Below, piece by piece: positions 1,239 to 64,000 of a stretch of 64,000 nt of DNA (position 1 is the stretch's first letter; each line of letters opens with the position of its first letter). The notes below the pieces were generated by a model. It did not search any database. It saw nothing but the letters and a program-made list of their open reading frames with translations, and was not told where the DNA came from. The position numbers and the translations under genes are program-made. Origin of the DNA: Candidatus Babeliales bacterium (GTDB lineage Bacteria > Babelota > Babeliae > Babelales > JBFXEV01); assembly GCA_050179755.1 (NCBI GenBank), contig JBFXEV010000001.1:143881-207880 (forward strand). Reading direction: 5' to 3'.

Positions 1239-1469
1239 TTAAAAGAATGAAGCTCGTGAACGATTAGTTTGAGTTCTTCTTTGTGTTGCAGTTTGCTGTG
1301 TTGTAGTTCCTTTACGCGGTTCAACTTGAGCCTGTCTTGCAGGAGTTGTTCGCTGTGCTGACCGAGTTGTTGTTGTTCGCGCAGTTGTGCTGCTTGTACG
1401 ATCCATAGCTTGGAGGCCAAATGCAACCAATGCTACAAACACTGAAGTTAAGATTAATTTGATATTCAT
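1239..1469 (-). CDS. Small secreted Thr/Arg/Gln-rich low-complexity protein
   Basis: Signal peptide ending GLQA-M, AAGGAG SD, ends RSRASFF. Confidence 0.8.
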   Translation of the reverse strand: MNIKLILTSVFVALVAFGLQAMDRTSSTTARTTTTRSAQRTTPARQAQVEPRKGTTTQQTATQRRTQTNRSRASFF

Positions 1470-1601
1470 GATATCTCCTTTTGTTTATTGTACAATAACA
1501 TTTTTATTCAATTTCCAATTTTATATCCCTTAAAAAATGCTCTTCCGGAACGTTGCGTTGCAGCAGGCTTGTTGCACGGCTGTTGTCTTGCTGACGCGGA
1601 T

Positions 1602-2321
1602 CTAAAATCTAAATACAGCAGTTTTTTCAGGCGTTTGCGTTCTTGTTACTTCAGGCTGTGCAGTTTTTGCAGGCTGTGGCGCTGCTGTTGCTCGTGCTGG
1701 TGCAGATCTAAACGCAGCAGCTTTTGCAGGCGTTTGCCTTGCTATTACACGCGGTGCAGCAGTAGCTGGTCTTGTTGCTGGTTGCGCAGGACGTTTAAAA
1801 GCAGCAGCTCGTGTAGTTGCAGGCTGTACTGTTGTAGGTCTTACGGTACTTGTAGTATGTGACCTTGCAATAGCTCTTTGCGCTGCAGACGAAGAAGCTG
1901 CAGAACGTTGAGCAGATGTTTGCGCTGTCATGGGTTGTACAATCGATGCAGTTGTAGCTGTTGAAAGCGGTCTAGCACCAACCATTGTAGGGCGCGATAC
2001 TGCCGGTCGTGTTATTGGTTGCGCAACGGGTCTTGCTGCCACAGTTGAAACTGGCGCTTGAGCTACCGGTCTTACAAACGTTGAAGTTGGAGCCTGTGTT
2101 ACCATTGGCTGTGCAAACGTTGGTGCTGGAGCTGTAGTCATTGTTGGTTGTGTAATCGTTGATGAGGAAGTTTGTGTAATAATGGGCTGAGCTACCGTTG
2201 ATGATGGCGCAGCACCAATTGGCGCTTGTGGCGCGCTAAGTGCAGATGTCTGTGCTTGTAATTTTAATGACCCACAAAGTATACTAACCATCACTAAGTT
2301 CATTATTATTTGTTTTTTCAT
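1602..2321 (-). CDS. Secreted Ala/Pro/Thr/Gln/Arg-rich low-complexity protein, C-terminus probably truncated by a 7-bp duplication
   Basis: Signal peptide (LQA-Q), AAGGAG SD, AQP/ARP repeats; ATCTAAA tandem duplication at 1600-1613 creates the stop. Confidence 0.8.
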   Translation of the reverse strand: MKKQIIMNLVMVSILCGSLKLQAQTSALSAPQAPIGAAPSSTVAQPIITQTSSSTITQPTMTTAPAPTFAQPMVTQAPTSTFVRPVAQAPVSTVAARPVAQPITRPAVSRPTMVGARPLSTATTASIVQPMTAQTSAQRSAASSSAAQRAIARSHTTSTVRPTTVQPATTRAAAFKRPAQPATRPATAAPRVIARQTPAKAAAFRSAPARATAAPQPAKTAQPEVTRTQTPEKTAVFRF

Positions 2322-2341
2322 ATTATCTCCTTTTTAATTTT

Positions 2342-2878
2342 TTATTTATTGAAAAAACCTCTTGCGCGCTGTGCTGGTGCACTTTGCATTACATTTTGAG
2401 CTGCAGCTGGCGCAGTTGAGCCAGTTGTTTGCCCTAAACCTCTAAACGTATCTGCTGATGACATACCTTCAGATACTGTTGAAACACCCTGCTCGGGCAA
2501 TGCCGCAGAAGCACCCGGCGCTGTACTTATTGATGAAAACGCTTCTTGTGATTGTGCAAATGAGAATCTACTTTGCCTTGGTGTTGCTATAGTAGTTGTA
2601 GCTGGTGTTGCAGTGACCACACTTCTTGCACCTGACGGTTGTACTGGTAATCGCTCTGGTGCTCCTTGCACACGCCCCGCAGGCAATCTACCTGTTGGCA
2701 ATGTGGCAGCAGTAGCTGCTGGACTTACAGTAGGTCGAGGAGCAGAAGTAAATTTGCTTACACTTGCAGGCCTAATTCCTTGAGTGCCACGTACCGCATC
2801 AAATTTTTGAAACATACCATACGCGCCCGTGGTATAACCACTTACACATGCAAGCATTATAAGTAATTGCTTTTTCAT
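2342..2878 (-). CDS. Secreted low-complexity Ala/Thr/Ser/Pro-rich protein
   Basis: ORF 2342..2890, likely start MKKQLL at 2878 after GGAG; signal peptide AYG-M; ends RARGFFNK. Confidence 0.8.
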   Translation of the reverse strand: MKKQLLIMLACVSGYTTGAYGMFQKFDAVRGTQGIRPASVSKFTSAPRPTVSPAATAATLPTGRLPAGRVQGAPERLPVQPSGARSVVTATPATTTIATPRQSRFSFAQSQEAFSSISTAPGASAALPEQGVSTVSEGMSSADTFRGLGQTTGSTAPAAAQNVMQSAPAQRARGFFNK

Positions 2879-2902
2879 ACTATTCTCCATTTTTCTAGTA
2901 TC

Positions 2903-5546: not shown

Positions 5547-5942
5547 ATGAAAATAAAAATATCTCGTATTCTCTGGATTGCTAGTATGCTAATTGTGAGC
5601 AACGTATGCTATACAATGAATCAAGAACCAGTAGCCGCAGCTCCTCTTGGCGCACTCTTAAGAAATGGTGCTCGTGCTCGTCTAGATACAATAGTTTTCA
5701 CCCACCTCAATGTAGTCCTAGCATTACGCGGCAATGATGGCAAAGGAGGCTTTGCCATCATTGAATTAGTGCAAAACTGCAGAAACGAAGCATCGCCTAT
5801 CTCTCAAAAATCTGGGGAACATTTGCTACTTTATGGACTTGTTGATGCAACTCATAAACCATTACCAGAGCTCAAAGATATAATTGTATCAATGGCTATT
5901 GGTAACGGCTTAGAAATGAAAATTGTATCTCCTATCAAGTAA
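5547..5942 (+). CDS. Secreted hypothetical protein
   Basis: Signal peptide ending CYT-MNQ. Confidence 0.7.
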   Translation: MKIKISRILWIASMLIVSNVCYTMNQEPVAAAPLGALLRNGARARLDTIVFTHLNVVLALRGNDGKGGFAIIELVQNCRNEASPISQKSGEHLLLYGLVDATHKPLPELKDIIVSMAIGNGLEMKIVSPIK

Positions 5943-13011: not shown

Positions 13012-13155
13012 GTGAATAAGAATACGCAAGCAATACTCTTCTTGGCTGCAGTTTCTTTTTACGCACACAGCATGAATCAGCCTAATCATATAGAACCTCA
13101 AGCAGCTATCTACAAAAAATGGTCAACCTCCAAACGAGTTACTCCACACGTATAA
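13012..13155 (+). pseudogene. Short leader-bearing ORF, probably a truncated secreted protein
   Basis: GTG start: VNKNTQAILFLAAVSFYAHS-MNQPNH..(47 aa); an open frame continues shifted to about 13259. Confidence 0.4.
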
Positions 13156-13307: not shown

Positions 13308-13874
13308 TTATCTTACAAGCTCATGGCACGGGCAATCAACATTCACAAGATCAACGGCTTTTTGGCCAAACGCATTTTCCATGTGACGATCTGCACCGGC
13401 CTTTAATAATCTCTCCACCACCGCCTGTAATCCAAAATTAGCTGCAAGCATAAGCGCTGATTGGCCACCAATATTTTGCGCATTCACGTTGGCGCCTTTT
13501 TCAATTAAAAGGTAAACCATTTGTTCAACTTGTGCAGCATCTTGATTATTTGCATACGATAATATTGCAGCGATGAGTGGCGTCATTTTTTGACGATCAG
13601 CAGCATTAGGATCAGCTCCTTTTTCAAGAAGTAACACAAAAAGTTCTATATGTGATTGAAGTGCTGCATTAATGAGAGGGGTTTTGCCCCCTACATCAAT
13701 GCTATTTACCCCAACTCCTTGAGATAGAAGTTCTTCAATTTTCTGTACATCACCTTTAAAAGCAGCATGCACAATAGCCGACGACTCATTGATCATCAAA
13801 TCGCTTCGCTCATTAACAGCCCCTGCAGAAGCTGGGATAATAAACCCAAGTAGTACTCCATAATGCTTCTTCAT
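13308..13874 (-). CDS. Secreted ankyrin repeat protein
   Basis: GKTPLINAA, LLEKGADPN, TPLIAA, GANVNAQN, GQSALMLAA; AAGGAG before ATG 13874. Confidence 0.92.
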   Translation of the reverse strand: MKKHYGVLLGFIIPASAGAVNERSDLMINESSAIVHAAFKGDVQKIEELLSQGVGVNSIDVGGKTPLINAALQSHIELFVLLLEKGADPNAADRQKMTPLIAAILSYANNQDAAQVEQMVYLLIEKGANVNAQNIGGQSALMLAANFGLQAVVERLLKAGADRHMENAFGQKAVDLVNVDCPCHELVR

Positions 13875-14056: not shown

Positions 14057-15754
14057 ATGCGCCAAGGATTTTACTTGTTTAATTATTTCTTTTTCTTCTG
14101 TAGCATACTCTGCACTACCACCAATCTATGGTGCATGCGAACCCAGCCATTTTTTAAAGTTGTTACAACTAATGATGGCAAAGAATATATGGCCCATCCT
14201 AAATTATTTGCAGCTTGTAACTCTGTTGTTCCTATCGACCCTACTGAACATATTTTTCCACTGAAAACGGTTTCAAGTACAGAATGGGAACCATTCGAGG
14301 CTTGTTTACAAGCATTATTTAAAGAAGAAAGGACTATGCAACCTGCACAACAGCGCTCCTTAGGCGTGATTATAGGAGAGCAAGCTACCAATAAAAAAAG
14401 AGCTCGCGATATACTTGCAGTAGCGCATTTATTTGGTCATGATCAACTTGTAGATGCCACCATGCAACTATGGGCAGATCGCAATTATGGCATGCCAGAG
14501 CAAATTTCTAGTGATTCGCTACCGCATGAACTGGTCTACGATTTGCCAGCTGATGCACAAGAAGGGATAGCTCAAAAGGTACTTTATAGTACGCCTTTAG
14601 ACCAAAAGTTACCAAAATGGGTAATAAAAATGAACATAAAACCGCGCACCATAAAACTTACACAGAGTTTATGGTCATGCGCAGCAAATAAACATTCTCA
14701 AGTTGCTGTAGGCTGCGTGGATGGTACAATTACCATTCTTGCTGATGAAACTGTTCAACGAAATTTTCCGGCGCATACCAAAGAAGTAAGCGATCTTCAC
14801 TTTTGCCCCGATGGCAACTTTTTATTTTCTGCAGCGCAAGACAGCGTAATCAAAGTGTGGAATGCACAACAAGAATTTGCATTCGTTCGTGAATTTCAAT
14901 TAAACAAACCGACACTTCCTTTTTCTATAGCGCTTAATACTCAAAATACGTTAATTGCAACACCACTTGACCAGGGTATACGCGTATTTGATGCCAACAC
15001 CGATGATATTAACTTTATACTAAATCCAAATAGTAAATCAGCCACCGTTATTTTTGACCAAACAGGTGCGCGCTTGATTGCAGATGCGCAACAAAGTACT
15101 ATTGCAATTTTCAATGTACAAACAGGAATACAGGAAGCAGCACTTGAAATCCAACAAAATATACCTCAGCGATTGCAATGTAATGCGCAAAATTCTTTGC
15201 TTGCAGCCGGTATGAAATCTGGCCTTATATTTTTATGGAACCTTTCTGATTTTAGCTTACAAGCAACCTTTAATGCGCATGCAAATAAAATTTGGGCGAT
15301 CGAATTTAGCCCTTGTAGTAGATTTTTATTCACGGCTTCTACAGATAAAACCGTTAAGATTTGGGATCTAGTCACCGTTAAATGTATAAAAACCTTTAAC
15401 GTTAACACCGCCGTACATGATATGCGCCTTACCCCAGATTTAGAACTTATTATAGCGTGCAAAAACCGTGCCCTAAAATTCATTCCCATTAAAGACTTTC
15501 TTAAACAATATCAAAAACACTGCCATTATTTTAAAAACAAGACTACACTTGCACAGGCTCTTTTAATTCAAGAAGCTTTTACCAGAAAACAAGATAACCC
15601 GCTTGTGTTGACACCCGAAGCTAGAGCAACATTAAGCACATTTGATCCAATTATTAAGGCTTTACTTCAAAAAGAATTACCATTCCAAAAAGCAACAAAG
15701 AAAAAAAGGAAAACAGAAGATGAAAAAGATGCAGATTACGTTCCAGACAATTAA
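14057..15754 (+). CDS. Secreted Skp1/BTB-like plus WD40-repeat protein
   Basis: Signal peptide (LWC-M); VVTTNDGKEY..FPLKTV..ILAVAHLFGHDQLVD; WD40 repeats (AHTKEV..IKVWN, AHANKIW..VKIWD); KKKRK tail. Confidence 0.85.
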   Translation: MRQGFYLFNYFFFFCSILCTTTNLWCMRTQPFFKVVTTNDGKEYMAHPKLFAACNSVVPIDPTEHIFPLKTVSSTEWEPFEACLQALFKEERTMQPAQQRSLGVIIGEQATNKKRARDILAVAHLFGHDQLVDATMQLWADRNYGMPEQISSDSLPHELVYDLPADAQEGIAQKVLYSTPLDQKLPKWVIKMNIKPRTIKLTQSLWSCAANKHSQVAVGCVDGTITILADETVQRNFPAHTKEVSDLHFCPDGNFLFSAAQDSVIKVWNAQQEFAFVREFQLNKPTLPFSIALNTQNTLIATPLDQGIRVFDANTDDINFILNPNSKSATVIFDQTGARLIADAQQSTIAIFNVQTGIQEAALEIQQNIPQRLQCNAQNSLLAAGMKSGLIFLWNLSDFSLQATFNAHANKIWAIEFSPCSRFLFTASTDKTVKIWDLVTVKCIKTFNVNTAVHDMRLTPDLELIIACKNRALKFIPIKDFLKQYQKHCHYFKNKTTLAQALLIQEAFTRKQDNPLVLTPEARATLSTFDPIIKALLQKELPFQKATKKKRKTEDEKDADYVPDN

Positions 15755-17489
15755 ACAAAATCTACTGGGCATACTATTCATCATTTCTTGCACAACAATG
15801 CCCTTGCACCAAGTTGATGGCACAATCACATGCTTTAGTAACGGCAAGCCAGTTTCACACCTTAAAACCACGTTGCAAACAGGACAACAACAAGTCATTG
15901 TAAAAACTAAAATATTAATGCCTTGTCTTGCACTAGCAGTACATATTGAAGAAGGGCAGGAGGTCATTCCATTACCCAACATACCACCATTTGAGCTTCT
16001 TCATGTAGCAGCATGCCTGCAAGCGCATTATGAACTTATGCACGCTCGTTCAAAAGAAGAATATCAAGGAAAACGCCAACAACTTGATGCACAGCTTAAT
16101 TCAGAAGAAAAAGTTCACACAGCGCTTATGGCAGCAAATTATTTAGATCATAAAGATCTGCGTGCTCGATGCGCATCCCTTTGGGCCACTAAAAATTACT
16201 CGCGCTCATTTATGCAAGCTACGCCTGACGAAGTTGAATTTGAAATTGCACAGCGAAAACTTGAACAAACATCACTCCATGACGATATTGCCTATTGGAT
16301 GGCTCAAAAAACTTGGATCAACCCCACAAGGACACTTAATCATAAGAACCGGTCAGTTTGGTCACTGGCTTCCAATAGCTCTGGCACGCAAGTTGCCGTT
16401 GGCGATTACTTGGGAAAAATTAGAGTATATGAGCAGGATCAAAAAGAACCTAGTATTAGCATACAAGCACATGCTACTGCCATCACTGATATAGCATTTA
16501 ACGAAGATGATACTTTGGTAGCCACTTGTGCAAGAGATGGCTCACTTCGTTTTTGGGATATTGAAACTAAAGCACAAAAATCGCAACTTGACAGCGACCA
16601 TCCGCTTGCCCCCTATGCCTTTAAAACGCATTACAACACAGAGCAAATTGCCTATGATGAAGGATCTAACATTATAGTCGTAAACCCCGCCAATGACACA
16701 GAAAAAGTACTTGAAGGCCATAGTGATTATATTTGCTCTCTTGCTTTTAATAGTGAAGGCACCATGCTTGCATCAGGGGGGGAAGACTGCTCCATAAAAC
16801 TCTGGGATCTTTCCACTGGTGCGTGCATGGCAACATTAATTTCTCATACAGAATCGGTGGCTTGCGTACAATTTAGCCCTGATGACAGTTTACTTGCAGC
16901 AGGATCTATGGATGCTAGTATTTCTCTCTATGATGTTTCAACGCAAGAATTAGTTACAAAACTTGAAGGCCATAAGAACAAAGTTTGGTCGGTAATTATT
17001 TCAAACGATAATCAATTTTTATATTCTGCCTCAGTTGATGGCTCGATTAAAATCTGGCATTTGCCTACTGCGCGCTTGATTAAAAATTTAGTGACTTTTC
17101 CACGTACCCAGCTGCATGCAATGGTTTTGCAACCCAATGGCAGATTAGTTACTGCAGCATTAAATGGAGATATACAATTTTGGGATATCCCTACAATAAT
17201 CCATCCCATACAAGCGCTGCAAAAGTATATGCAAAGCGACAGAAGTTTTGATCAAGCCCAATTGATTGTTGATGCTTATGATGCACCTCAAAAAGAGCCT
17301 CTTGATTGTTCAACAAAGCGTGAACGAGCAAGAGCTTTTGAAACACTTAGACCTGAAATGCAAGACTTACTTATACACAACTTGCATGTAAAGCCCCCAA
17401 AGAAAAGAGTAAAATCAAGAAAGAAAGGTTCACAAAATAGTTCATCACGCAAACGCGCTACCGCTGATGCAATTGAGCCATTCAAGTAA
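15720..17489 (+). CDS. Skp1/BTB-like plus WD40-repeat protein, paralog of the upstream gene
   Basis: Likely start ATG 15720; VIPLPNI and ALMAANYLDHKDL match Skp1 motifs; GH..WD repeats; basic tail PPKKRVKSRKK..RKR. Confidence 0.88.
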   Translation: MKKMQITFQTIKQNLLGILFIISCTTMPLHQVDGTITCFSNGKPVSHLKTTLQTGQQQVIVKTKILMPCLALAVHIEEGQEVIPLPNIPPFELLHVAACLQAHYELMHARSKEEYQGKRQQLDAQLNSEEKVHTALMAANYLDHKDLRARCASLWATKNYSRSFMQATPDEVEFEIAQRKLEQTSLHDDIAYWMAQKTWINPTRTLNHKNRSVWSLASNSSGTQVAVGDYLGKIRVYEQDQKEPSISIQAHATAITDIAFNEDDTLVATCARDGSLRFWDIETKAQKSQLDSDHPLAPYAFKTHYNTEQIAYDEGSNIIVVNPANDTEKVLEGHSDYICSLAFNSEGTMLASGGEDCSIKLWDLSTGACMATLISHTESVACVQFSPDDSLLAAGSMDASISLYDVSTQELVTKLEGHKNKVWSVIISNDNQFLYSASVDGSIKIWHLPTARLIKNLVTFPRTQLHAMVLQPNGRLVTAALNGDIQFWDIPTIIHPIQALQKYMQSDRSFDQAQLIVDAYDAPQKEPLDCSTKRERARAFETLRPEMQDLLIHNLHVKPPKKRVKSRKKGSQNSSSRKRATADAIEPFK

Positions 17490-20673: not shown

Positions 20674-20790
20674 AAATAGAAGACTTGTCCTGTATTAAAG
20701 CATTATTTCCGACGCAAGATTTGCCCAGATAACAATAAAAAGGTATAGTAAAAAGTAGATAGTAACGTAGTAAAAAAGTAGGAATATCTA

Positions 20791-40659: not shown

Positions 40660-40663
40660 TTTT

Positions 40664-44990: not shown

Positions 44991-45750
44991 TTTCTTTTTT
45001 TTCAGCAGATTTCTTTTTTTCTTGTAATACCAAACTATATATTTTAGATATCGTAGATTCTTCAATGTTGCTCAGAGGACAATGTTTTCCATGTTTTGAT
45101 GGCGGGCATGATTTAAAACAGATCAGATCAAAACATGTTTGGCCCCATTTATTTCTTTTGATGACAGCCTCCCATACTCTACTCTGAAAAGCCTTAGCTT
45201 CTGTTTCTGGTATGAGTGCTTCTTGCTGCTCAGCAGTTACATTTTTAAGCGGTCCTTGCGTAGAAAAAATAGCAAAGATAAGTTCTGATAAAATGTGTAA
45301 GCCTATAGCAAGTCCACTGGGGCCTTGAGGAACAACTCTAAAACATTTATGAAAAACAGTATCTCCTACTGCAGAATCTGTTTGCAATGAAAAATCTGCA
45401 TCCCGTGCTAGTAGTAGACGAGCAACTTCCATGCGCTTTTCTATTTCTGGATACCATTTGTTATGTGACGTTAATGTTATCTTTCTTATTGCCCATTGAA
45501 GCGGTGGTAACCCAAAAGTGCCAAATTGATCTACTAAGGCGCCAGCTTCTAAAAGTGTCTGTACTGCTTCTTTATGGTCTAATGCCAATACTAAAGCAGT
45601 ATGGTCATGTCCATTTTTATAGTTTATATCCACATTACCTAGAAATGGCTTAATTAATGCAACATCACCTGTTTTTGCAGTGTCTAAAAAAGCTCTCTCC
45701 ATACTATGTGCCAAATTACTTACTGCCAACAATAATAACAAGCATATCAT
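44980..45750 (-). CDS. Secreted ankyrin repeat protein with C-terminal Cys/His cluster
   Basis: AHS-MER leader; HTALVLA, LLEAGA, GLPPLQWA, GDTVFH; CFKSCPPSKHGKHCP. Confidence 0.82.
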   Translation of the reverse strand: MICLLLLLAVSNLAHSMERAFLDTAKTGDVALIKPFLGNVDINYKNGHDHTALVLALDHKEAVQTLLEAGALVDQFGTFGLPPLQWAIRKITLTSHNKWYPEIEKRMEVARLLLARDADFSLQTDSAVGDTVFHKCFRVVPQGPSGLAIGLHILSELIFAIFSTQGPLKNVTAEQQEALIPETEAKAFQSRVWEAVIKRNKWGQTCFDLICFKSCPPSKHGKHCPLSNIEESTISKIYSLVLQEKKKSAEKKEISE

Positions 45751-46037
45751 GATCAAAATCCCTTATTGATTATCTTTATTCATTATATGTGCACTATTTG
45801 CAACATCATAAACACGTTTCAATCGTTCTTCATCACAAAAGTTTACACATTTTTCGTGCGATAAGCCCTGGAGCATGATCTTTTTGGCAAATTGCTTTTG
45901 CAAGCACGTTATTATTCATGCCCTGAGCACTAAAAGAAAGCAACACCAAAAACAAAAAAATACATATTGCAAAACTCCCTAATGCGAGTAAACTATATTC
46001 TTTTAAAAAATACTTACACAATCTTTTAGGAGGCCTT

Positions 46038-54377: not shown

Positions 54378-54893
54378 TTAATTCATGGTAAGAGCTTGTT
54401 TTAGTTCGCGCTTAAACTTATATTGGCCATTATCAAAAACCTCTAGTGAGGCTTGTTCACCCTTTCTAAGATTCACTGGAGCTTGATACCATCCACTGTT
54501 TATATGACGCCACTTAAAAGTTTGAATGCCAGAATGCTCTACGGTAAAAGTAACTGATTGGGGATCCCAATACGATTGATACGGCGCAATAGACGTTTTT
54601 GTCTTAGCATTTTTGCTATTTACCGTATCTGGATCTGTATAACTTTCCAATACCATACAGCGGGCCATATTGTATACCTTAAGTGAAGATTTAGACGCTT
54701 TGTCAAGCCAATACACCGCTGCAACAAAGCTGGCACAAAACGCAATAGTAACTAGCACCGATTCATCATCTTTTGCCATGTTCCATGCATAATCAAGTAT
54801 GCCTTGACCACGAGCATGAGACTCCATGCTTTTAGCTGGCAATGCAATGCTTGTTAAAAACACTATCATGCTAAGTTTTTTAATCATCTTCAT
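54378..54893 (-). CDS. Secreted hypothetical protein, shared-leader array member 4
   Basis: AKS-MES leader, then amphipathic and TM segments. Confidence 0.75.
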   Translation of the reverse strand: MKMIKKLSMIVFLTSIALPAKSMESHARGQGILDYAWNMAKDDESVLVTIAFCASFVAAVYWLDKASKSSLKVYNMARCMVLESYTDPDTVNSKNAKTKTSIAPYQSYWDPQSVTFTVEHSGIQTFKWRHINSGWYQAPVNLRKGEQASLEVFDNGQYKFKRELKQALTMN

Positions 54894-54904: not shown

Positions 54905-56230
54905 TTACTTAATTTTAATACTAGTAAGATGCTTAATCAATGTCCAAATAATGCCATCTTTAATGCGAGAAGCATTAGCTCCAGAATCGGCAACACTATA
55001 TTCAATAATGCCATGATGCTTATGCACCACAAGCGTGATCCAATGCCGGCTTCCAGAAACCGATCCGGGCTTGCCGCTCATAAGACCAACCACAAAAGCG
55101 TGTATAAAATCATCTACTTTTGCAAGACGCTCAGCTATCTCGATAATTTCTTTATATTCTCCTTCACCTTGATTCAAGAGCGGCACGTTATCAATAATAG
55201 TTATGCCATCAAAATGAACTGGTAAATCTGCAAGCAATCCACCAACTTGCTGTTCATGCTTAAGTAAAAGGCCAATTTCATTTTCATTGACCCAATCACC
55301 TTGTGCATCAAACTTGTTATCAGGATGTGCTGCATTATACTGTTGAAGCGCTTCAGCTTTTGAAATTTCAAATATATGTTCAGCATTTATTGTATTTTCG
55401 GGCACATATAATGCAAGCGCCTCATCACTTTTTGCATAGGCCACAAAATCAAAATTCTCGAGCCCTTCAATATCACCTTTCATAATTCGCTGAGACTTTT
55501 TGACTGCGTCAATAAACAGAGCACGCGTGATAGTAATTTTTGTGCTCGCTTCTAAAGGTTGGCCCTCAAGTGCAGAGAATAATGCTGCCACTAATTGCGG
55601 GCTTAGCTCAGTTGCTAGCACGCCTTGGTAAAAGCCACGAATTTTTGTTTTAAAACGGTCTTGTAATTTCTGATCAAGATGTTGCGCCTCAAGTGGAACT
55701 TCTACATGCTGCACGTCATTATAAGAAATTAACAATGCATACAATTTTTGATCAATATGCCATTTGATCGCACGGCGATACGTATTTTCTAGCACTAATT
55801 TACGCCAACCGCCTTTAGGGTCTTTTTTATTAAATAACTGCTGTACAATAGAAAGATCAGTAAGCTGCGGTTGCCCTGCTTTGCCAGACAGCATGCGGCA
55901 TATATAGATAGCATTTTTTAAAGATTGATAACCACAACTTGCATCGCCACCATGATCAGCAGATCCATATTGATTAAGTACGTGCAATTGCTTAATAGTG
56001 GGCCCCCAAATGGAACCGTACACTGCACGATTAGTGCGCATTTGCTTGGCCGCATACACACCTGCTCCTGCAAGTGCGCCTACTGCAAGCAATGCACCAG
56101 AATGTTCTTTTGCAAAGTTTAATGCGCGATCAAAATAATTCTGATCGCCATCCCCTGAATCCATAGCATGAGCTGGGAATGCTATGCACCATAGAGATAT
56201 AAACAAGATAATGTGTTTAACTATATTCAT
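54905..56230 (-). CDS. Papain-fold (Josephin-like) cysteine protease candidate, array member 3
   Basis: AHA-MDS leader; LNQ..DASCGYQSLKN, GDW, HWITLV..YSVADS; paralog of 22655..24007. Confidence 0.65.
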   Translation of the reverse strand: MNIVKHIILFISLWCIAFPAHAMDSGDGDQNYFDRALNFAKEHSGALLAVGALAGAGVYAAKQMRTNRAVYGSIWGPTIKQLHVLNQYGSADHGGDASCGYQSLKNAIYICRMLSGKAGQPQLTDLSIVQQLFNKKDPKGGWRKLVLENTYRRAIKWHIDQKLYALLISYNDVQHVEVPLEAQHLDQKLQDRFKTKIRGFYQGVLATELSPQLVAALFSALEGQPLEASTKITITRALFIDAVKKSQRIMKGDIEGLENFDFVAYAKSDEALALYVPENTINAEHIFEISKAEALQQYNAAHPDNKFDAQGDWVNENEIGLLLKHEQQVGGLLADLPVHFDGITIIDNVPLLNQGEGEYKEIIEIAERLAKVDDFIHAFVVGLMSGKPGSVSGSRHWITLVVHKHHGIIEYSVADSGANASRIKDGIIWTLIKHLTSIKIK

Positions 56231-57315
56231 TTTCGTACCTCTGTCTCATCATCTTCTAACTCATCACAGAAAGCATCTAGCTCTGCATCGCTTAACTTGC
56301 AAATTGCTTTAATAACATTACGCGTAATTACGGGGCGATACTGCTCAATTTTTTTAGGATCAACCAGATCGCGTATTTCATCTTTTGCTTGAATTTGTAT
56401 TTTACGATCTTGCAATAACGCATCTATGCTGCTCAATCGAGCATCTATTACCTTTTGAATCTCTTGCTGTAGTGACTGCATTGCGTTTGTATCTTCTTGT
56501 GCTACTTCAAGTAAATTTGCGCAAACTACTTTGGTCATCTTAAAATGATTAAGTGAACAAAACAAGGACTGTTCAAGCATGCATTGAACTGCCTGCGCAT
56601 TACCCTTTTTTACTGCTACATACAATGCTGTTTGGCCACTTGAATTCGTTAGATCAATTCGAGCGCCCCGCTCTAGAAGTTGGGGCAGCAATGCACTATG
56701 CCCTTCTTCCAAAAGCATATGTATCGCTGTATCACCATCATTAGTTTGCGCATTGAGGTCTACATGTGCTTTGCAAAACAACTGCACCACGTCGGCAGCA
56801 CCAGTTCGCGCTGCCCAGTGCAACGGCGTGCAACCATCTGCATCTTTTACATACTGCCTTTGTACATTTTCAAAAATAATTTTTGCTAAGTTTGCACGAT
56901 TAAAAAGAGCTGCAAAATGCAATTGCGTAAACCCATGAAAATCCTCGGGTTGCAAATGTGCGCAATCGGCAAGAATAAATGTATCAATTTTTGCATCATC
57001 TTCCACATAAGAACTTGCAAGATCAGACTCTTTTATAAGAGCTACCAGTTCACTTTTAACGTAGTCTACGGTAAGTAATTTTTTGCTCTCTAAAGCTTGT
57101 GTAACTCGCGATTGTCTTTGAGCATTGCGCTCATGCACTGCTACCTGTGGAGTATGTTTTATTGATGGCTTAAACACAGAACTAACAGCCCTGCTAATCC
57201 TCATTTTTAAGCGACCAAATAAACCCTTATCACCGTTGCCTGAATCCATAGCGCGGGCAGGGAAAACAATACAAAATAAGAATAAAATAAGGGTGATTTT
57301 CTTAAAAATATTCAT
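56227..57315 (-). CDS. Ankyrin repeat protein, array member 2
   Basis: ARA-MDS leader; GFTQLHFAA, GCTPLHWAA, GDTAIH, GQTALYVA. Confidence 0.9.
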   Translation of the reverse strand: MNIFKKITLILFLFCIVFPARAMDSGNGDKGLFGRLKMRISRAVSSVFKPSIKHTPQVAVHERNAQRQSRVTQALESKKLLTVDYVKSELVALIKESDLASSYVEDDAKIDTFILADCAHLQPEDFHGFTQLHFAALFNRANLAKIIFENVQRQYVKDADGCTPLHWAARTGAADVVQLFCKAHVDLNAQTNDGDTAIHMLLEEGHSALLPQLLERGARIDLTNSSGQTALYVAVKKGNAQAVQCMLEQSLFCSLNHFKMTKVVCANLLEVAQEDTNAMQSLQQEIQKVIDARLSSIDALLQDRKIQIQAKDEIRDLVDPKKIEQYRPVITRNVIKAICKLSDAELDAFCDELEDDETEVRK

Positions 57316-57334: not shown

Positions 57335-58399
57335 CTAATTATTGCTGTTATTAATTGACGATATTGGTTCTATACCCATTAATGCTGCTCGCACATTTTG
57401 CTCAACAGCTTCGCGGTAAAGCTCATCAACATTCTCCGCTTTCATAAAATCAAATGTTCGCGCAACGCCAGGAATTCCATGAACATGCCTCCAAAATGCT
57501 GCCCCTAGATCAAATTCAATATCCGGATTTTCAGTAAGAAATTGTCTTAGCATATTAAGTCTATAATCAACAATAACGGGAACCAACTTGGCCAATACTC
57601 TTGGCCTTGTAGCAACAGGAATATTTACGCATAATTCCTGAAACCATTCAAATGGGCACATTGCCACCAATTGCTCTAATGATGATTCACTCTGAACGTA
57701 TGCTAATTGACACACATTTGAAATATCTTCTGGCAAGAATGAAAGAATTTTGCATATAACGTTATCTGGCAAGTCAATTATTTTTAATACTTGGTATGCT
57801 GCATCAAATCGAGCCCCAGCCTCCAATGAACCATTGCTTGCGGGAGTAAAAGATGCGTTTTCTAATAAAACTTTAATTAGTTGGCAGTGCTTGTCAGTTG
57901 GAGGTGGCAAAACAATGTAGATCATACTCTCAATATTTGATCTATTAATTTTATACCCGCAATTAAAAAAGAAATCCATTACCTTAACATCTCTCTTTTC
58001 TAGTGCCCGCACAAGAGCCCATTGAGCTTCTCTAGAATCAATGTCAATCTCACCATCTCTCATAATTTGTTTGGCAAGATCAAAATTGTGTACTTTTAAT
58101 GCATTGGCAAAAAGCTCACCCCATTGCCGCCGGTGCAACTCTTGTTGTGCTCGCATGCGATCGAACTCCCCACCACGTCGCTCTTGTTCAAGCCTTTGTT
58201 GACGGTTCTGATACCAGTCATAGCATACAATGGCTAACCCCAATGCACCCGTAACACTAGCTATTATTACGGGATGTTCTTTTGCGATATTCCATATACG
58301 GCCAAAAAAGCCTTGATTATTATCTTGCTCCATGCCGAAGGCAGGTTGAGCAACACACATTACAGATAAAATAAGGGTTATTTTCTTGAAAATATTCAT
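57335..58399 (-). CDS. Degenerate ankyrin protein with F-box-like motif, array member 1
   Basis: AFG-MEQ leader plus TM; ankyrin-like helices; DLPDNVICKILSFLP. Confidence 0.7.
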   Translation of the reverse strand: MNIFKKITLILSVMCVAQPAFGMEQDNNQGFFGRIWNIAKEHPVIIASVTGALGLAIVCYDWYQNRQQRLEQERRGGEFDRMRAQQELHRRQWGELFANALKVHNFDLAKQIMRDGEIDIDSREAQWALVRALEKRDVKVMDFFFNCGYKINRSNIESMIYIVLPPPTDKHCQLIKVLLENASFTPASNGSLEAGARFDAAYQVLKIIDLPDNVICKILSFLPEDISNVCQLAYVQSESSLEQLVAMCPFEWFQELCVNIPVATRPRVLAKLVPVIVDYRLNMLRQFLTENPDIEFDLGAAFWRHVHGIPGVARTFDFMKAENVDELYREAVEQNVRAALMGIEPISSINNSNN

Positions 58400-58597: not shown

Positions 58598-59401
58598 TTA
58601 CCCTTCAATCGATTTAGCTATATTCTGCAATTGTTCAGAGCGCTCACAAAGATACTCCATATCTTGCCAATAAGGCAATGGGCCTACAAATGGAGTAAAA
58701 TCCAATTCTTGCAAAGCACACAATAAAGCCACATTAGTTACCCGTGTATGCAAGAATATTCTAGAGACTGAAAACGGGAGCTTAAAAATAGCGCTCAAAA
58801 GCAGTTTATCAATGCCGCGCTCATGTGCACCCTGCTCAACACCAAACATGGCTACCTTTACCGTTCCTGATTCAAAAAGAGGCTGCACCAAAAATTGAAT
58901 GATGCCCAACGTTTGGCCAGTATCAGCATCTTTGGCTGTTACAAACCATTGCCTCTCATCAGGAGCAAGATACTTTGCAAAATCAGTTTCAGAAAAAAAC
59001 TGTACTAATTGTGCATGCAATGTCTTTTCAACCTGTTCCCAATTCACGTGCTCTACACCATCTTTAAAAAATGATACCAGCGGCTTTAAAAACATTTCTG
59101 ATTCTACTGCCTCAGGATGTTTACGAGCAAACTCCAGCTCCATTGTTGCATACGTTTGCGCAAAAATTTGACTTGCTTGCCTAAATACATCATTTAACCG
59201 TTTAGTTGTTACATCCACTTCTTCCCAAACAAGTTGTATCGGCGCTCCAAAATTATCTTTTGCTTTTAATATTCCATAACTCATTGTTTTAATACTTTCA
59301 AGATTATGCTTAGTTATTGGCATACTCCACGAATTTGCCATAACAAATAATATGCTGAGGGTAGTAACTACCCCCAAAATATTACGTTGAACATACTGCA
59401 T
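58598..59401 (-). CDS. Signal-peptide protein with C-terminal GNAT-like domain
   Basis: SWS-M leader; FGVEQGAHERGIDKLLL and LHTRVTN resemble GNAT motifs A and B (degenerate). Confidence 0.65.
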   Translation of the reverse strand: MQYVQRNILGVVTTLSILFVMANSWSMPITKHNLESIKTMSYGILKAKDNFGAPIQLVWEEVDVTTKRLNDVFRQASQIFAQTYATMELEFARKHPEAVESEMFLKPLVSFFKDGVEHVNWEQVEKTLHAQLVQFFSETDFAKYLAPDERQWFVTAKDADTGQTLGIIQFLVQPLFESGTVKVAMFGVEQGAHERGIDKLLLSAIFKLPFSVSRIFLHTRVTNVALLCALQELDFTPFVGPLPYWQDMEYLCERSEQLQNIAKSIEG

Positions 59402-59718: not shown

Positions 59719-61245
59719 TCATTCATGAGTAAGTTCCGTTATGAGAGCAAGCGCTTCTTTTACTATTGCCGCTTTTTTTAATTGTATTGTTAGTTGAGTC
59801 TTGAGATAGTGGCCTAGCCACTTGCCAGCTTGCGCTGCCGCAAGCAATCGCACCAAAGAGTTTGTTGCAGGTATTTGCCAATAATTATCTACTTCCTTTG
59901 CTACAGTAAAAGCTGATTTCTTTGTTTTATCATGTACGCGATCAGGATCCGCCCCTTCAAGCAATAACAATCTGGCGATTTCAATAAGTTTTATTGGGTG
60001 TCGCTGATATCTATAACTATATTCAGCCAATACGTCGAGCGGTGTTTGCCCTTCATGATTTTGTTCCAGTAAACGATTACCTTCAACAGAAAATAATTCA
60101 TGCAAGTGGTCATCATCAGTCAGCATGCCAAATTTCGCCACATGATGGAATGCATTATTACCCTGCGCATCAACACTTCCCTTAGGAAGACGCGCAAGGA
60201 GCTTGACCATGGTTCCTGACCGAGCCCAATGAATAAGATCAATTTTATAAATCCCATGTTGTATGAAAAATTGCACCAATGGAATATCATCTTCAATTAG
60301 CGCAAGTTTGCCCAAGTTAAAACTTTCAAAATTTTCATTAAAATAATTTTTGTTAATCGTAAGAACCATAGCAATAAGCACGCGTAGCTCGTGCCAGTTT
60401 GAAAACACGGGATTAAGTTCACACAATAATAAATCAGCGGCACCTTCACCAAATTCACGTGCATCTTGCACTGCAACAATGCGCTGCCAAAAAGGATATT
60501 TTGGATGTGATCTTATTACCTCACAATTCAATACCCCCGGGCTACCTGGCAAAATAGGGCACCATTGTTCTATATATTCTTTAGTAATAACTTTGGGCAA
60601 CTTAGTTTGTATATAAGCGCTTGCATGGCATTTGCAAGACTGCACTGCCCGGGAGACCACGTGCCTACGTGGTTTTAATATATCCGCAAAGATGCATGCT
60701 CTCATACTTGCATGGAAAATACGCTGTTCAAGATGGCCAAATCTCGGCTCATATTGATAACACGCGCCATAATCCATAAATGTTTGTTCTGCGTCATCTT
60801 CCCGAGTAACGTCTGCTCCGTACTTATAAAGCAATGTTGCCCAGGCAATTGCATGCTCAGCATCAGTTCTACCAACTTCTTGGCCCACAATATGGAGTGG
60901 CGTGCGCCCTCGCGCATCAACAGCCCCTGCTGCTGCGCCATGTTCCAAATAAAATTGTAATAATGAAGTCTGTAATTTATTACGTGCAGCTGTTCTACAC
61001 ACGTGATGTAACACGGTACCATTATGAATGCCACCTGTTAATGCATAATCAGCGCCGCGTGAACGTAAAGTTTCAGCTTCTTCCTTTGTTTTTGCGGTAA
61101 AAAAATAAGGAGCTTGTAAGGCTATTGTTGTGCCATTTGGTATGTGATACTCAATGCTTTCTTGCGCATTAGGATTAAGATCCATAGCACAGAGCACCGT
61201 TGTTCTCTGTACTAACAATAAAACAATAATGATGCAATAACGCAT
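59719..61245 (-). CDS. Secreted ankyrin repeat protein
   Basis: Likely start 61245; LCA-MDL leader; GTVLHH, GRTPLH, GNNAFHH, GQTPLD, GADPD. Confidence 0.88.
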   Translation of the reverse strand: MRYCIIIVLLLVQRTTVLCAMDLNPNAQESIEYHIPNGTTIALQAPYFFTAKTKEEAETLRSRGADYALTGGIHNGTVLHHVCRTAARNKLQTSLLQFYLEHGAAAGAVDARGRTPLHIVGQEVGRTDAEHAIAWATLLYKYGADVTREDDAEQTFMDYGACYQYEPRFGHLEQRIFHASMRACIFADILKPRRHVVSRAVQSCKCHASAYIQTKLPKVITKEYIEQWCPILPGSPGVLNCEVIRSHPKYPFWQRIVAVQDAREFGEGAADLLLCELNPVFSNWHELRVLIAMVLTINKNYFNENFESFNLGKLALIEDDIPLVQFFIQHGIYKIDLIHWARSGTMVKLLARLPKGSVDAQGNNAFHHVAKFGMLTDDDHLHELFSVEGNRLLEQNHEGQTPLDVLAEYSYRYQRHPIKLIEIARLLLLEGADPDRVHDKTKKSAFTVAKEVDNYWQIPATNSLVRLLAAAQAGKWLGHYLKTQLTIQLKKAAIVKEALALITELTHE

Positions 61246-61506
61246 TGTATTCCACAAGCTCACAAAAATTCTCATATTCTATAATAGCGATGAGTTACAG
61301 CTTACCTGACTTATAATAATTTCCAATTGTGTGTAATCGATTGTAATATGGAGATACTGCACAAAACAATATTTGTTATGCAATTACTCCGATTAAAGAA
61401 GTAGCGAGCTCACGAGCATAAAAAATATAAAACTCTTTGGATATGAGCACTCAATGATGTATACTTATGAATGATCCACTAGTTCATTGTGCCAAAAGGC
61501 TTTATC

Positions 61507-63099
61507 ATGAGACAATCCTTACAAAAATTTTCTAACTTTTCAGCAAACATTAAATCCGGGCTTACGCTCGCACTTGTGGCAACTCCCGGCGCCATTTCAC
61601 TTGCGGTAGCTTCTGGCGTAAATCCTGCGATTGGCATGATCACTGGCATTTGGGCAAGCATTGTTGGTGCACTTTTTGGCGGCAGTAATTATAATATTAT
61701 TGGCATGACGGGCGCACTCACGGGCATTATTGCATCATATGGTATTATGTACGGGCCAGAAATGATTCCCAGCTTAACATTAGTGGCCGCACTGTGCATG
61801 CTTATTGCGTATCTTACAAGATTAGAACGTTATTTAATATTTATTCCGTCAAGCGTTATTCACGGCTTTACCATGGGCGTTGCATTAATGCTCTTTCTTG
61901 GTCAAGTTAATGGTGCATTAGGCTTAGTCAATGTACCCAAACAAAGTAAATTTTTACTAAACGTTATTGAATCACTTAAGCACGTACCTCAATTTGACCC
62001 GCATGCCGTGCTTGCATTTGCATTCTTTTTTTGCAGTCTAATCTTGCTTAGAAAGTTGTTTCCCAAAATACCTGGCGCCATTGTTATAACGCCACTCAGT
62101 ATTATACTGGGTTATGCAACAACATCTGGCATCATTCCCGTTCGCCTACAAACGCTTGGCAGTCAATTTGGCACATTACACCCCCTTCTTTTTAAAATGC
62201 CCGCATTTCACTTTAACATGAATTTGCTGAGCCCTGCGCTGGTGGTTGCCTTTATTGCCATACTCGAGACTATGCTTGCTGCCAAAATTGCCGACGTACT
62301 CACCAAAACAAAACATAACCCACGCAAAGAAATGTTTGGATTAGCGCTTGCCAATATTGCCACGGCCATTATGGGCGGCGTTCCAGCATCAGCAGCACTT
62401 GCACGAACCACGTATAACATTAATGCAGGAGCCACTAACGCACTCTCGGCACTTTTTTCTGGCCTTTTTATGATCGTTATTTCATTTGCATGTTTATCCT
62501 TTTTTTCATATATGCCAGTAACAGCAATTGCTGCCATTATAGTCTACATTTCTTTAACTATGGTAGAGCGTGAGCATTTTAGGCGCTTATACACCTATGA
62601 TAAACCAAACTTTTTTATTGCACTTTTTGTAGCATTAATCATAGTAGGTGAAAACCCTATTGTGGGCATTCTTGCTGGGGCTGTTATGGCGCTGTTGATA
62701 CTTATTAATAAGCTTGCAGAAAGTAACTATGAAGTAGCAGAGCATGAATCATATAAAATTGCACCATCAGATATGCGTGATGCCAAATCTCAAAACGTGC
62801 TTGTATACTTTTTTAAAGGGAAACTCGTATATCTTAATAGCCAAGGACATATTATACGTTTTCAGCACGAATTTAAAAACTATGCAGGTATTATTTTGGA
62901 TCTTCATGATCTCTATTATTGCGATCTTGATGGCGTTGATGCTCTAGAAGAGATTATTGACACTATTAAATGTCGCGGACAAGCAATTGCTCTTATTGCA
63001 CCAAAATCCCCGGTGAAAAATATGTTAGCAAAAAGCGCTCACTATAAAACATTAGAGGAATCTGGACGCGTGTTTGAGACGCTCCATCAGGCGTTATAA
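61507..63099 (+). CDS. SulP family anion transporter with STAS domain
   Basis: SGLTLALVATP, LFGGS, IHGFT, ARTTYN, C-terminal STAS (DLDGVDALEE). Confidence 0.92.
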   Translation: MRQSLQKFSNFSANIKSGLTLALVATPGAISLAVASGVNPAIGMITGIWASIVGALFGGSNYNIIGMTGALTGIIASYGIMYGPEMIPSLTLVAALCMLIAYLTRLERYLIFIPSSVIHGFTMGVALMLFLGQVNGALGLVNVPKQSKFLLNVIESLKHVPQFDPHAVLAFAFFFCSLILLRKLFPKIPGAIVITPLSIILGYATTSGIIPVRLQTLGSQFGTLHPLLFKMPAFHFNMNLLSPALVVAFIAILETMLAAKIADVLTKTKHNPRKEMFGLALANIATAIMGGVPASAALARTTYNINAGATNALSALFSGLFMIVISFACLSFFSYMPVTAIAAIIVYISLTMVEREHFRRLYTYDKPNFFIALFVALIIVGENPIVGILAGAVMALLILINKLAESNYEVAEHESYKIAPSDMRDAKSQNVLVYFFKGKLVYLNSQGHIIRFQHEFKNYAGIILDLHDLYYCDLDGVDALEEIIDTIKCRGQAIALIAPKSPVKNMLAKSAHYKTLEESGRVFETLHQAL

Positions 63100-63765
63100 A
63101 TTAATAACCTCAATTTCTTCTTCGCCGCTAGGCGAAATCTGATATGCTTTTTTACCCTCTTTGGCACTCACCACGCAATGTAACGTGCCATCAACATAAT
63201 GCGCGGCCACGTCGTCGTGCAAAGCAATGCCAGGTTTAACCGCGCGCTCTTGCATTAACTTTAAAAACGTAGGCCTGCGCTCAGGCTCAGTATCATAATG
63301 CGGGCAGCTGCTACCAGGCAAAAAACCCAAACACTCAAGCACGCCAAGAGGCCACACAGAATCAGTAATGCCTTGTTCAAACCAACAGATCGCACCCGCG
63401 CTCACGCCAGCAAGCACTATGCCTTTTTCGTACGCCTCTTTAAGCACATGATCCACACCCCATTCACGCCAAAGCGCTAGCATGCTGCGTGTGTTGCCAC
63501 CGCCCACAAAAATGACGTCTGATGTAAGTAAGCGCTCTTTCCAATCCGGAGACACTCTACCAAACAAAGAAACAGCACTTGGTTGAGCGCCCAGACTCTG
63601 AAACGCATCATAGAATCTGACAATATATTCTTTTGACTCAGCACTTGCCTGGGGTAAAAAAGAGACTTTAGGGTTTGGCTTTTCAACTTGCGAAAGTATA
63701 TATTTTTCCATAGTAAATGGTGATCTAAAGCCCCCACCAATTGCTATTATTTGTTTTTTTGGCAT
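63094..63765 (-). CDS. pepE: Peptidase E (S51) family
   Basis: IGGG, VGGGNT, GVSAGA, CPHY. Confidence 0.88.
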   Translation of the reverse strand: MPKKQIIAIGGGFRSPFTMEKYILSQVEKPNPKVSFLPQASAESKEYIVRFYDAFQSLGAQPSAVSLFGRVSPDWKERLLTSDVIFVGGGNTRSMLALWREWGVDHVLKEAYEKGIVLAGVSAGAICWFEQGITDSVWPLGVLECLGFLPGSSCPHYDTEPERRPTFLKLMQERAVKPGIALHDDVAAHYVDGTLHCVVSAKEGKKAYQISPSGEEEIEVINL

Positions 63766-63902
63766 AATTTTATACTAGTCTGTAAGATACATTATCAAGA
63801 ACTTCTACATACTTCTAGTTTACACCCGGCCTTAGGCCTTGCATAGTTTAACTCCACCTATACACTAAAATCAAAGTAGTCTCTGATTTTCTAAAGATAC
63901 GT

Positions 63903-64000
63903 ATGAAATTTGCAATTGCTTTTCTTGGCCTTTATATACTTGCAAGCTCAACAAGTTCTGCTATGGATATACAGGAATTGCATGAATGTAGGCTGCCCAG
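63903..64000 (+). CDS. Secreted protein, partial (runs off the window)
   Basis: MKFAIAFLGLYILASSTSSA-MDIQELHECRLP. Confidence 0.6.
   Translation, partial: MKFAIAFLGLYILASSTSSAMDIQELHECRLP

Follow-up and report, generated by a model that had tools for sequence, protein, structure and literature searches.

The exported proteins encoded in a 64,000-nucleotide stretch of a Babeliales contig (the window) raise the question of why so many predicted signal peptidase sites are followed directly by methionine, and whether this residue (+1) and the next one (+2) set apart proteins destined for the host. The source genome, 96% complete, belongs to a protist parasite of the Babeliales (Dependentiae). 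Eighteen such motifs had been listed in an earlier note on this DNA; all are present in the window, in frame and behind hydrophobic leaders, and a nineteenth (CTT-MPL) had been missed (Table 1). The accompanying statement that +2 is Asp, Glu, Asn or Gln holds for 15 of the 18 motifs and fails for MFQ, MRT and MPI. The Met-led group had been described as ankyrin, WD40, protease and orphan proteins; Pfam identified four ankyrin and two WD40 proteins, and no Met-led protein of the window matched a protease family. Pfam also confirmed the exported proteins said to lack the Met, namely three thioredoxins, NamZ, two clostripains, a DUF2608 protein and an OMP barrel. Of two named exceptions, the ankyrin protein at 13308 indeed lacks the Met, having Val at +1, and the gene at 22655, labelled a protease, gave no Pfam match at E<=0.1. 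No convincing homologs of the three tiny ORFs were found within the genome, an Atlas search with the orphan at 54905..56230 returned no usable match, and the window had no Rfam match, so no RNA element was seen.

Table 1. Met-led genes of the window and exported genes that contrast with them
Feature	Coordinates	Strand	Cut site	Met codon	Remarks
76-aa orphan	1239..1469	-	LQA-MDR	1406	SD AGGAG at first ATG; no Pfam match
Orphan	2342..2878	-	AYG-MFQ	2815	Met-hydrophobic exception
Orphan	5547..5942	+	CYT-MNQ	5616	Thr at -1
Tiny putative ORF	13012..13155	+	AHS-MNQ	13072	Mature 27 aa
WD40 protein	14057..15754	+	LWC-MRT	14135	Pfam
WD40 protein	15729..17489	+	CTT-MPL	15798	Pfam; start could be 15720; absent from the earlier list
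Ankyrin-like protein	21867..22391	+	VYS-MQE	21930	Local profile only, no Pfam match
Tiny putative ORF	22397..22537	+	CRA-MDN	22457	Mature 26 aa
Orphan	30826..31137	-	VYA-MQE	31077	
Ankyrin protein	39826..40677	-	IVA-MNK	40605	Pfam; start codon tentative
Ankyrin protein	44980..45756	-	AHS-MER	45702	Pfam
Tiny putative ORF	45833..46021	-	AQG-MNN	45919	Mature 28 aa
Orphan	54378..54893	-	AKS-MES	54827	
Orphan	54905..56230	-	AHA-MDS	56164	
Ankyrin protein	56227..57315	-	ARA-MDS	57249	Pfam
Orphan	57335..58399	-	AFG-MEQ	58333	Weak F-box-like match, E=0.013, under cut-off
Orphan	58598..59401	-	SWS-MPI	59323	Weak GNAT match, E=0.01, under cut-off; Met-Pro exception
Ankyrin protein	59719..61245	-	LCA-MDL	61185	Pfam; start tentative (61245-61275)
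135-aa ORF	63903..64000	+	SSA-MDI	63963	Runs past window end
Contrast: short canonical ankyrin with signal peptide	13308..13874	-			Val at +1
Contrast: two exported thioredoxins	20179..21300	+			Cut without Met; third thioredoxin at 28438-29562; Pfam
Contrast: NamZ muramidase	29563..30786	-	LFA-QYK		Pfam
Contrast: two clostripain-family proteins	34418..36890	-			Cut without Met; Pfam
Contrast: DUF2608 protein	46038-46790	+	SLA-KII		Pfam
Contrast: OMP beta-barrel	48692-49573	+	AQA-NHF		Pfam

The Met-first pattern is real and genome-wide. Signal-peptide-like leaders were called in 604 of 1412 genes (about 40%), and at this looser threshold 190 of the 604 proteins had Met at +1; 500 shuffles gave 16 on average and 28 at most. 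Under a stricter -3/-1 rule the figure for the whole genome was 176 of 548 (32%), against 1.1-4.0% at flanking offsets, 2.9% in 547 proteins lacking signal peptides and 1.3% in 75 polytopic proteins. All cut sites are predictions by scorers built for the present analysis; the -3/-1 scorer is blind to the mature side, using nothing downstream of the cut, and its offset -1 is zero by construction. Another predictor, whose training set of 82 non-repeat signal peptides included five with the Met, placed it at +1 in 161 of the 604 proteins and in 57 of 104 ankyrin/WD40 proteins. At the 176 sites the scorer accepted A (120), S (19), G (18), C (18) or T (1) at -1 and L, A, V, S, I or T at -3; independently of any scorer, A, S, G or C precedes Met-[DEQ] in 147 of 175 cases. 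These leaders have the n-h-c layout with small -3 and -1 residues of a Sec/signal peptidase I substrate, and the predictions support the claim of the note that cleavage falls directly before the Met. No description of such a rule was found in the literature searched; a preprint on a Ciliophrys symbiont and a paper on Atribacterota proved to have no bearing on it.

The class split claimed in the note is also pronounced. With unbiased site calls, 61 of 97 ankyrin/WD40 proteins were Met-first, versus five of 118 envelope, glycan and other Pfam-named enzymes (Fisher p=4.6e-22); when near-best sites were admitted the counts became 75/97 and 8/118. Envelope proteins (1/27) and glycan enzymes (0/27) together gave 1/54, and 100 of the 278 orphans scanned were Met-led. 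Some host-type proteins do without the Met: 19 of 80 signal-peptide ankyrins lack it, and an exported ubiquitin-specific protease has the mature start Ala-Arg. A D-Ala-D-Ala peptidase-like protein is Met-led. Met-led genes are clustered (116 adjacent pairs versus 81 when shuffled), and the same leader recurs in tandem WD40 genes. Among the 221 Met-led leaders, 205 are less than 50% identical around the cut.

The second residue is likewise constrained. Asp or Glu occupies +2 in 123 of the 221 Met-led proteins versus 62 of 383 other signal-peptide proteins, while MetAP-permissive residues (18/221 versus 147/383) and the Met-hydrophobic type (16/221 versus 83/383) are depleted. These three biases agree with degron rules given in passages of the review PMC8037982. 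Met-Lys accounts for 23 of 221, and NatB-type Met-[D/E/N/Q] for 149 of 221 here and 50 of 88 in relatives. Met-led proteins are products of bacterial ribosomes, and NatB, in the account given in sections of PMC9692967, is tethered to the ribosome and acts on nascent chains, which makes it doubtful that NatB would literally acetylate a protein once it has been secreted. That part of the interpretation in the note therefore weakens, while the cut position, the class split and a +2 profile that fits a stable eukaryote-type N-terminus are retained, as is a Met that is no internal start.

This last point bears on whether the Met might be the old start of a gene that was given a grafted signal peptide, or a second start for a cytoplasmic form. 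Gene callers do choose the +1 ATG, and some grafted enzymes (GAPDH, MsrAB, PPDK, PolA) still have an internal Met close to where the domain begins. A strong SD, however, precedes the +1 Met in 1.8% of the 221 genes, whereas the first start has one in 54% and ATGs deep inside genes in 3.1%; neither GTG (6 of 32 Val) nor TTG (2 of 26 Leu) is in excess at +1; and Asp or Glu follows 7% of 217 real starts as opposed to 56% of +1 Met residues. Cytoplasmic-type enzymes with leaders lack the +1 Met, their relic Met lying 9-24 residues downstream. In the EEP family leader and linker (8-21 residues) vary among members but the Met keeps its place at the cut, distant homologs already possess leaders in which +1 is Gln or Leu, and on the family tree the Met was gained or lost at least nine times on pre-existing signal peptides. 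Without a ribosome-binding site, and with such gain and loss on existing leaders, the +1 Met is neither an internal nor a relic start. Both readings are largely refuted, and we regard them as very improbable. The practical consequence is an annotation trap, in that gene callers take the +1 Met as the start, so that the signal peptide goes unannotated.

Among 11 Babeliales genomes, which as kin are not independent, the Met fraction climbs with ankyrin load (rho 0.78). In relatives the Met-led call was made for 18 of 42 signal-peptide ankyrins, and for none of six in G028. The rule was seen in G029 (8/32) and was not seen in G003 (1/17), G004 (0/13) or G013 (0/18), and all eight concordant homolog pairs come from one genus. 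Host-dependent alphaproteobacteria showed no Met enrichment (5/109 at +1 versus 6/109 at +2), nor was the rule seen in the chlamydiae sampled. The alphaproteobacterial sample gave a hint of Ser at +1 (15/109).

The only outer-membrane route found in this genome is a type II-like system with two secretins, GspC, a PilM/GspL-like protein, two GspF and one prepilin. Two or three secretins occur in 31/31 Babeliales, relatives without the rule included. TolC and the type III, IV and VI markers FlhA/SctV, VirB4 and TssC gave no match in the 96% complete genome. Two LepB paralogs are present, but a dedicated signal peptidase is not supported, for the rule was seen in G029, where LepB gave one match, and not in G004, where it gave two.

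It is quite plausible, if a little short of probable, that Met-Asp/Glu at the predicted cut shields ankyrin, WD40 and orphan proteins from the N-degron machinery of the protist after delivery, a reading drawn from sequence patterns. After Sec export, signal peptidase I would cut at the predicted site directly ahead of the encoded Met, and the outer membrane would then be crossed through the conserved type II system or in vesicles. In the host cytosol the residues usually exposed by signal peptidase (Asp, Glu, Gln, Lys and bulky hydrophobics) would act as degradation signals. Met would be safe only if +2 blocks the host Met aminopeptidase and is non-hydrophobic, so that selection would converge on Met-[D/E>K,Q,N]; proteins retained in the envelope would be under no such selection. 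NatB acetylation would be possible but not required. In favour are the excess over chance, the class split, the three +2 biases, the Met retained at the cut in the EEP family, the correlation with ankyrin load and the convergent start of SAP54 in phytoplasmas, which lack an outer membrane. Against this stand the ubiquitin-specific protease, the 19 ankyrins without Met, the D-Ala-D-Ala peptidase-like protein, the 23 Met-Lys starts, the mixed ankyrins of relatives and the unenriched alphaproteobacteria. Since Ala, Ser, Thr and Val are also stable by the classical rule, host stability alone leaves the dominance of Met unexplained.

That specificity would be accounted for if Met-[D/E/Q] were a cargo tag, akin to the xE/Q/D end left by PEXEL processing, by which an export machine, acting in the periplasm (or at the vacuole membrane), sorts exported proteins from retained enzymes. 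With leaders on about 40% of called genes sorting is needed, and the most likely reader would be the type II system, whose large secretins form a tandem pair, in view of their conservation and the absence of matches to other routes; every statistic from this genome is also compatible. We nevertheless consider such a tag rather unlikely. The secretin pair is present in G003, G004 and G013, where the rule was not seen, and type II systems are known to recognise their cargo by folded surfaces and not by a free N-terminus. The phytoplasma effector SAP54 has the same start, in bacteria that lack an outer membrane. Avoidance of MetAP-permissive residues is not predicted by a tag alone, and the ubiquitin-specific protease lacks the Met here too. 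Alternatively, the motif might have no function after cleavage, Ala-Met-acidic being simply a good Babeliales signal peptidase site or belonging to a leader cassette that duplication carried through fast-evolving genes. The clustering, the shared WD40 leader, the restriction of concordant pairs to one genus, the two LepB paralogs and the Thr, Asn or Pro found at -1 before some Met sites fit such a habit. It is made improbable by the divergence of most leaders, by the envelope and glycan proteins, which have Met in 1/54 under the same peptidase, by G029 with its single LepB, and by the repeated gain and loss on existing EEP leaders.

Host stability and sorting can be joined in a broader proposal, which is possible though somewhat doubtful: the two residues that ordinary signal peptidase exposes might serve both to address host-directed proteins and to protect them, as the bacterial equivalent of the mature PEXEL N-terminus. 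This label would be recognised during type II-based export, by the N-degron system of the host, or by both; single substitutions would switch it on or off in individual genes, and SAP54 would have arrived at it independently. If so, the effectors of an uncultured phylum could be predicted from +1 and +2 with nothing but the sequence. As it stands, two residues split the Dependentiae secretome (about 40% of proteins) into two classes, and this simple sequence marker nominates some 220 proteins of this genome as candidate effectors. Whether Sec-secreting intracellular bacteria tune the post-cleavage N-terminus to host degradation rules becomes a testable question.

A Sec-dependent ankyrin secretome is shared with Babela massiliensis and Chromulinavorax destructans of the same phylum, where signal peptides are reported on 79/126 and 78% of ankyrins, respectively, and type II was proposed as the only secretion system of Babela (passages of PMC4378268 and PMC6561590). 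The words 'methionine' and 'cleavage' are absent from these main texts, where a +1 rule is unreported. The closest bacterial precedent is the Q-rule of Bacteroidetes, likewise a lineage-specific residue right after the signal peptidase I site, which stabilises exported proteins; sections of PMC5837995 and PMC10653852 describe its Gln as cyclised by a periplasmic glutaminyl cyclase and present on most signal peptidase I substrates, envelope included. In the Babeliales genome Gln is at +1 in only 39/548 proteins versus Met in 176/548, and the Met, with its acidic +2, is confined to ankyrin, WD40 and orphan cargo (envelope 1/27, glycan 0/27), with no modifying enzyme identified.

Comparison with phytoplasma SVM-leader effectors (SAP54/PHYL1, PF12113) rests on published supplementary sequences. 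In the PMC8026896 supplement [G/A]-Met-[Asn/Asp] follows the leader in 23/25 SAP54 homologs, SAP11 homologs start with Ala, Ser or Thr in 24/24, and surface Amp has Met in 0/33; mature SAP54 (91 aa) begins Met-Asp (PMC12633904 S4/S7). The word 'methionine' occurs in neither main text, and the passages concerned make no comment on Met. Three phytoplasma plasmids held no gene annotated as SVM family, and PF12113 matched neither window proteins (E<=0.001) nor 412 other signal-peptide proteins (E<=1e-8, strict for a 33-position model). Both groups secrete through Sec proteins that act, or in Babeliales would act, in a eukaryotic host, with Met-Asp/Asn on SAP54 and not on Amp; however, the phytoplasma leaders form one homologous family in wall-less bacteria, while Babeliales leaders are diverse and an outer membrane must be crossed. 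In Plasmodium, sections of a preprint (bioRxiv 10.1101/2023.07.12.548774) describe a proteolytically exposed xE/Q/D N-terminus that marks host-directed proteins and licenses their export, which is in keeping with the cargo tag. The PEXEL system is eukaryotic and involves RxL, plasmepsin V, acetylation in the ER, PTEX and a small first residue, and Babeliales sites have L/A/V/S/I/T at -3 and A/S/G/C at -1 in place of RxL. What the two have in common is E, Q or D in second place at an N-terminus exposed by proteolysis, on proteins of an intracellular parasite that are, or in Babeliales would be, host-directed.

All 18 leader-Met motifs that the earlier note had read in the window as a candidate host-directed sorting signature were found there, in frame, with Met at +1 of the predicted signal peptidase cut; the Met-[DENQ] form held less fully, D, E, N or Q standing at +2 in only 15/18. 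Three of these motifs lie in tiny ORFs, which are candidate genes only. Among window genes kept by the caller, 12 of 30 signal-peptide-like proteins scored as Met-led (Met at +1); the others escaped this count where the caller had begun the gene at the Met, where the ORF fell below the size limit, or where the residue at -1 received a low score. Coding-score gene callers placed the start at the +1 Met, and so lost the signal peptide, at six window positions (Table) and in proteins P0025 and P0093.

The genome holding the window (G000) is a 1.53-Mb single contig, 39% GC and 96% complete, with 122 ankyrin-profile matches. Its ribonucleotide reductase has Candidatus Babeliales as nearest named relatives (66-68% identity), and one exported protein has a homolog named Candidatus Dependentiae. 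The 1412 genes came from a self-trained dicodon and start-site model blind to signal peptides, and all cuts are predicted, by a main scorer that is blind to everything downstream of the cut. By this scorer Met occupied +1 in 176/548 signal-peptide proteins, neighbouring offsets in 1.1-4.0%, and the cut of 547 proteins without signal peptides in 2.9%. At the threshold used for later counts, 190/604 were Met-led versus 16 expected (maximum 28 in 500 shuffles); a second matrix, trained on 82 non-repeat leaders, gave 161/604. Loose counts also admit a Met site whose score lies no more than 1.5 below that of the top site; they lean upward, as Met itself is used in choosing the site (221/604).

Ankyrin and WD40 proteins were classified with local profiles seeded with Pfam-verified window proteins. 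Pfam was run on 412 of the other 507 signal-peptide-like proteins, the remainder lying in the window or outside the sampled loci; 134 matched, 16 of which were removed because the signal peptide was judged false or the protein was a membrane protein. Met-led proteins (strict, loose, total) numbered 52, 61 and 80 for ankyrins, 9, 14 and 17 for WD40, 1, 1 and 27 for envelope proteins, 0, 0 and 27 for glycan enzymes, 4, 7 and 64 for other enzymes, and 91, 100 and 278 for orphans. The enrichment by class that the earlier note had anticipated for eukaryote-like domains was supported genome-wide (Fisher p=4.6e-22, strict; paralogs are not independent). Around the cut, 205/221 leaders of Met-led proteins are less than 50% identical. 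Exceptions that count against a host-directed reading are a ubiquitin-specific protease with an Ala-Arg start, a Met-led M15 peptidase and 19 signal-peptide ankyrins without Met, 12 of them 145-243 aa. These short ankyrins, with Val, Ala or Ser at +1, form a second class, possibly periplasmic.

Relatives were sampled at about 80 kb each, so that the loose Met-led counts come from small samples: G001 17/27, G016 9/32, G029 8/32, G019 7/30, G030 3/22, G011 2/35, G006 1/28, G003 1/17, G004 0/13 and G013 0/18. The same caller over 400 kb of G000 gave 44/166 (loose). The fraction rises with ankyrin matches (rho 0.78, 11 mutually related genomes). From these samples and ankyrin-targeted stretches, 18/42 signal-peptide ankyrins of relatives were called Met-led (G025 6/7, G023 4/5, G028 0/6), and several more, in which -1 is Thr, Pro or Cys, were seen by eye. 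Small samples elsewhere gave 0/12 (strict) at chlamydial loci, 5/109 in 20 alphaproteobacteria with a nucleotide transporter and 1/64 in mixed other bacteria. Ser stood at +1 in 15/109 of the alphaproteobacterial proteins; several orphan secreted proteins of symbionts (loci L249, L250, L259) start Ser-Ser/Glu/Asp behind the predicted cut, possibly a parallel habit.

Coordinates of features (C1, contig of G000; L-numbers, sampled loci)
Feature	Coordinates	Locus
Window	G000:C1 143881-207880	
+1 Met miscalled as start	window 5616, 14135, 15798, 40605, 45702, 61185	
Short non-Met ankyrins	window 13308-13874	L092, L103, L115
Deoxynucleoside kinase with leader	window 52230-53435	
GAPDH with leader	G000:C1 988505	
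GlnA with leader	G000:C1 419919	
PPDK with leader	G000:C1 1116929	
PolA with leader	G000:C1 591579	
UDP-glucose dehydrogenases with leader	G000:C1 354624 and 364615	
Glycan-related signal-peptide enzymes (27, 0 Met-led)	G000:C1 ~341000-389000, 655000-661000	L094-L097, L111
Ten-gene ankyrin cluster, all without signal peptide	G000:C1 1396453-1408234	
GspC, secretin, PilM/GspL-like, small gene, second secretin	G000:C1 497032-505490	L103:10032-18487
Two similar signal peptidase I paralogs with Ser and Lys boxes	G000:C1 1044152 and 1506717	L142, L143

Could the +1 Met be merely an internal start, as the earlier note had allowed, or the relic of one? A strong SD precedes 54% of first starts, 1.8% of +1 Mets and 3.1% of deep internal ATGs. 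In G000, GTG and TTG codons are not over-represented where Val or Leu stands at +1, and D/E comes next at only 7% of real starts (n=217). The missing SD, the lack of a GTG/TTG excess and a +2 unlike that of real starts argue against a start-codon origin, which we rank last and consider very improbable. Leader-bearing enzymes of cytoplasmic type (GAPDH, GlnA, PPDK, PolA, UDP-glucose dehydrogenases; loci L128, L098, L134, L108, L095) have no Met at +1, the old Met, where kept, lying 9-24 residues downstream. Several are the sole copy, with no paralog in G000, and some have an internal Met directly ahead of the domain, from which a second, cytoplasmic form could arise. A functionless lineage habit is ranked third and unlikely in our estimate. 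Homolog pairs between G000 and relatives kept Met in 8/12 Met-led families, all eight within the same genus, and gained it in 0/70 non-Met pairs. For a Met-led EEP phosphatase the best 120 of 218 homologs were examined; among the matches listed, close homologs keep Met-[E/D/Q/H] at the cut while leader and 8-21-residue linker vary, and distant ones have leaders with Gln or Leu at the cut. A quick IQ-TREE tree was built on 110 rows, after 10 truncated or ambiguous ones had been left out and with 6 labels assigned by hand. In it Met occurs in 14/15 of the query's clade (SH-aLRT 98) and 1/21 of the distant clade, with 14 changes of label, at least nine of them forced.

The residue after Met is itself biased (D67, E56, K23, Q16, N10; n=221, loose, G000). 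D/E stand at +2 in 123/221 Met-led versus 62/383 other signal-peptide proteins, MetAP-permissive residues in 18/221 versus 147/383, and bulky hydrophobics in 16/221 versus 83/383. According to a review, degron N-termini include Asp, Glu, Asn, Gln, Lys, Arg and Met-hydrophobic; Met before small residues is removed by MetAP, and the Glu terminus that signal peptidase makes on BiP is arginylated once in the cytosol (PMC8037982). NatB prefers Met-D/E/N/Q, yet is ribosome-tethered (PMC9692967). Four GNAT acetyltransferases carry signal peptides (L090, L098, L108, L132), and an exported N-terminal acetyltransferase may be among them. We rank first, tentatively, the reading of +1 Met as a host-stable N-terminus; an export tag, with which it is compatible, comes second and seems rather doubtful. 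Secretins occur in 31/31 Babeliales, mostly as a neighbouring pair, a recurrent arrangement of ~800-1000-aa proteins in the Babeliales searched. In addition, G000 encodes GspC, a PilM/GspL-like protein, one prepilin and two GspF, and it gave no match to the TolC, VirB4, FlhA/SctV or TssC families. The number of LepB matches in a genome ranged from one to four and showed no association with the Met-first rule; in most relatives lepB adjoins a conserved small lipoprotein-like gene.

Phytoplasmas have no outer membrane, and the Met start of their SAP54 therefore cannot be an outer-membrane tag. In the PMC8026896 supplement, with cut positions of our own reading except for AY-WB SAP54, Met-Asn/Asp follows the leader in 23/25 SAP54 homologs (Thr-Asp in 2), Ala/Ser/Thr in 24/24 SAP11 homologs, and Met in 0/33 Amp sequences (part 1 of 19). 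AY-WB SAP54 has a 91-residue mature form starting Met-Asp (PMC12633904). By analogy, SAP54 is suggestive of a convergent case, in one family. A literature search, subscription journals lying outside its coverage, found no description of the Met-first rule, and 'methionine' and 'cleavage' are absent from the Babela and Chromulinavorax main texts (PMC4378268, PMC6561590). Among systems already described, the Bacteroidetes Q-rule (PMC5837995, PMC10653852) comes closest; the Babeliales rule differs from it in using another residue, in being coupled to +2 and in applying to one cargo class only.
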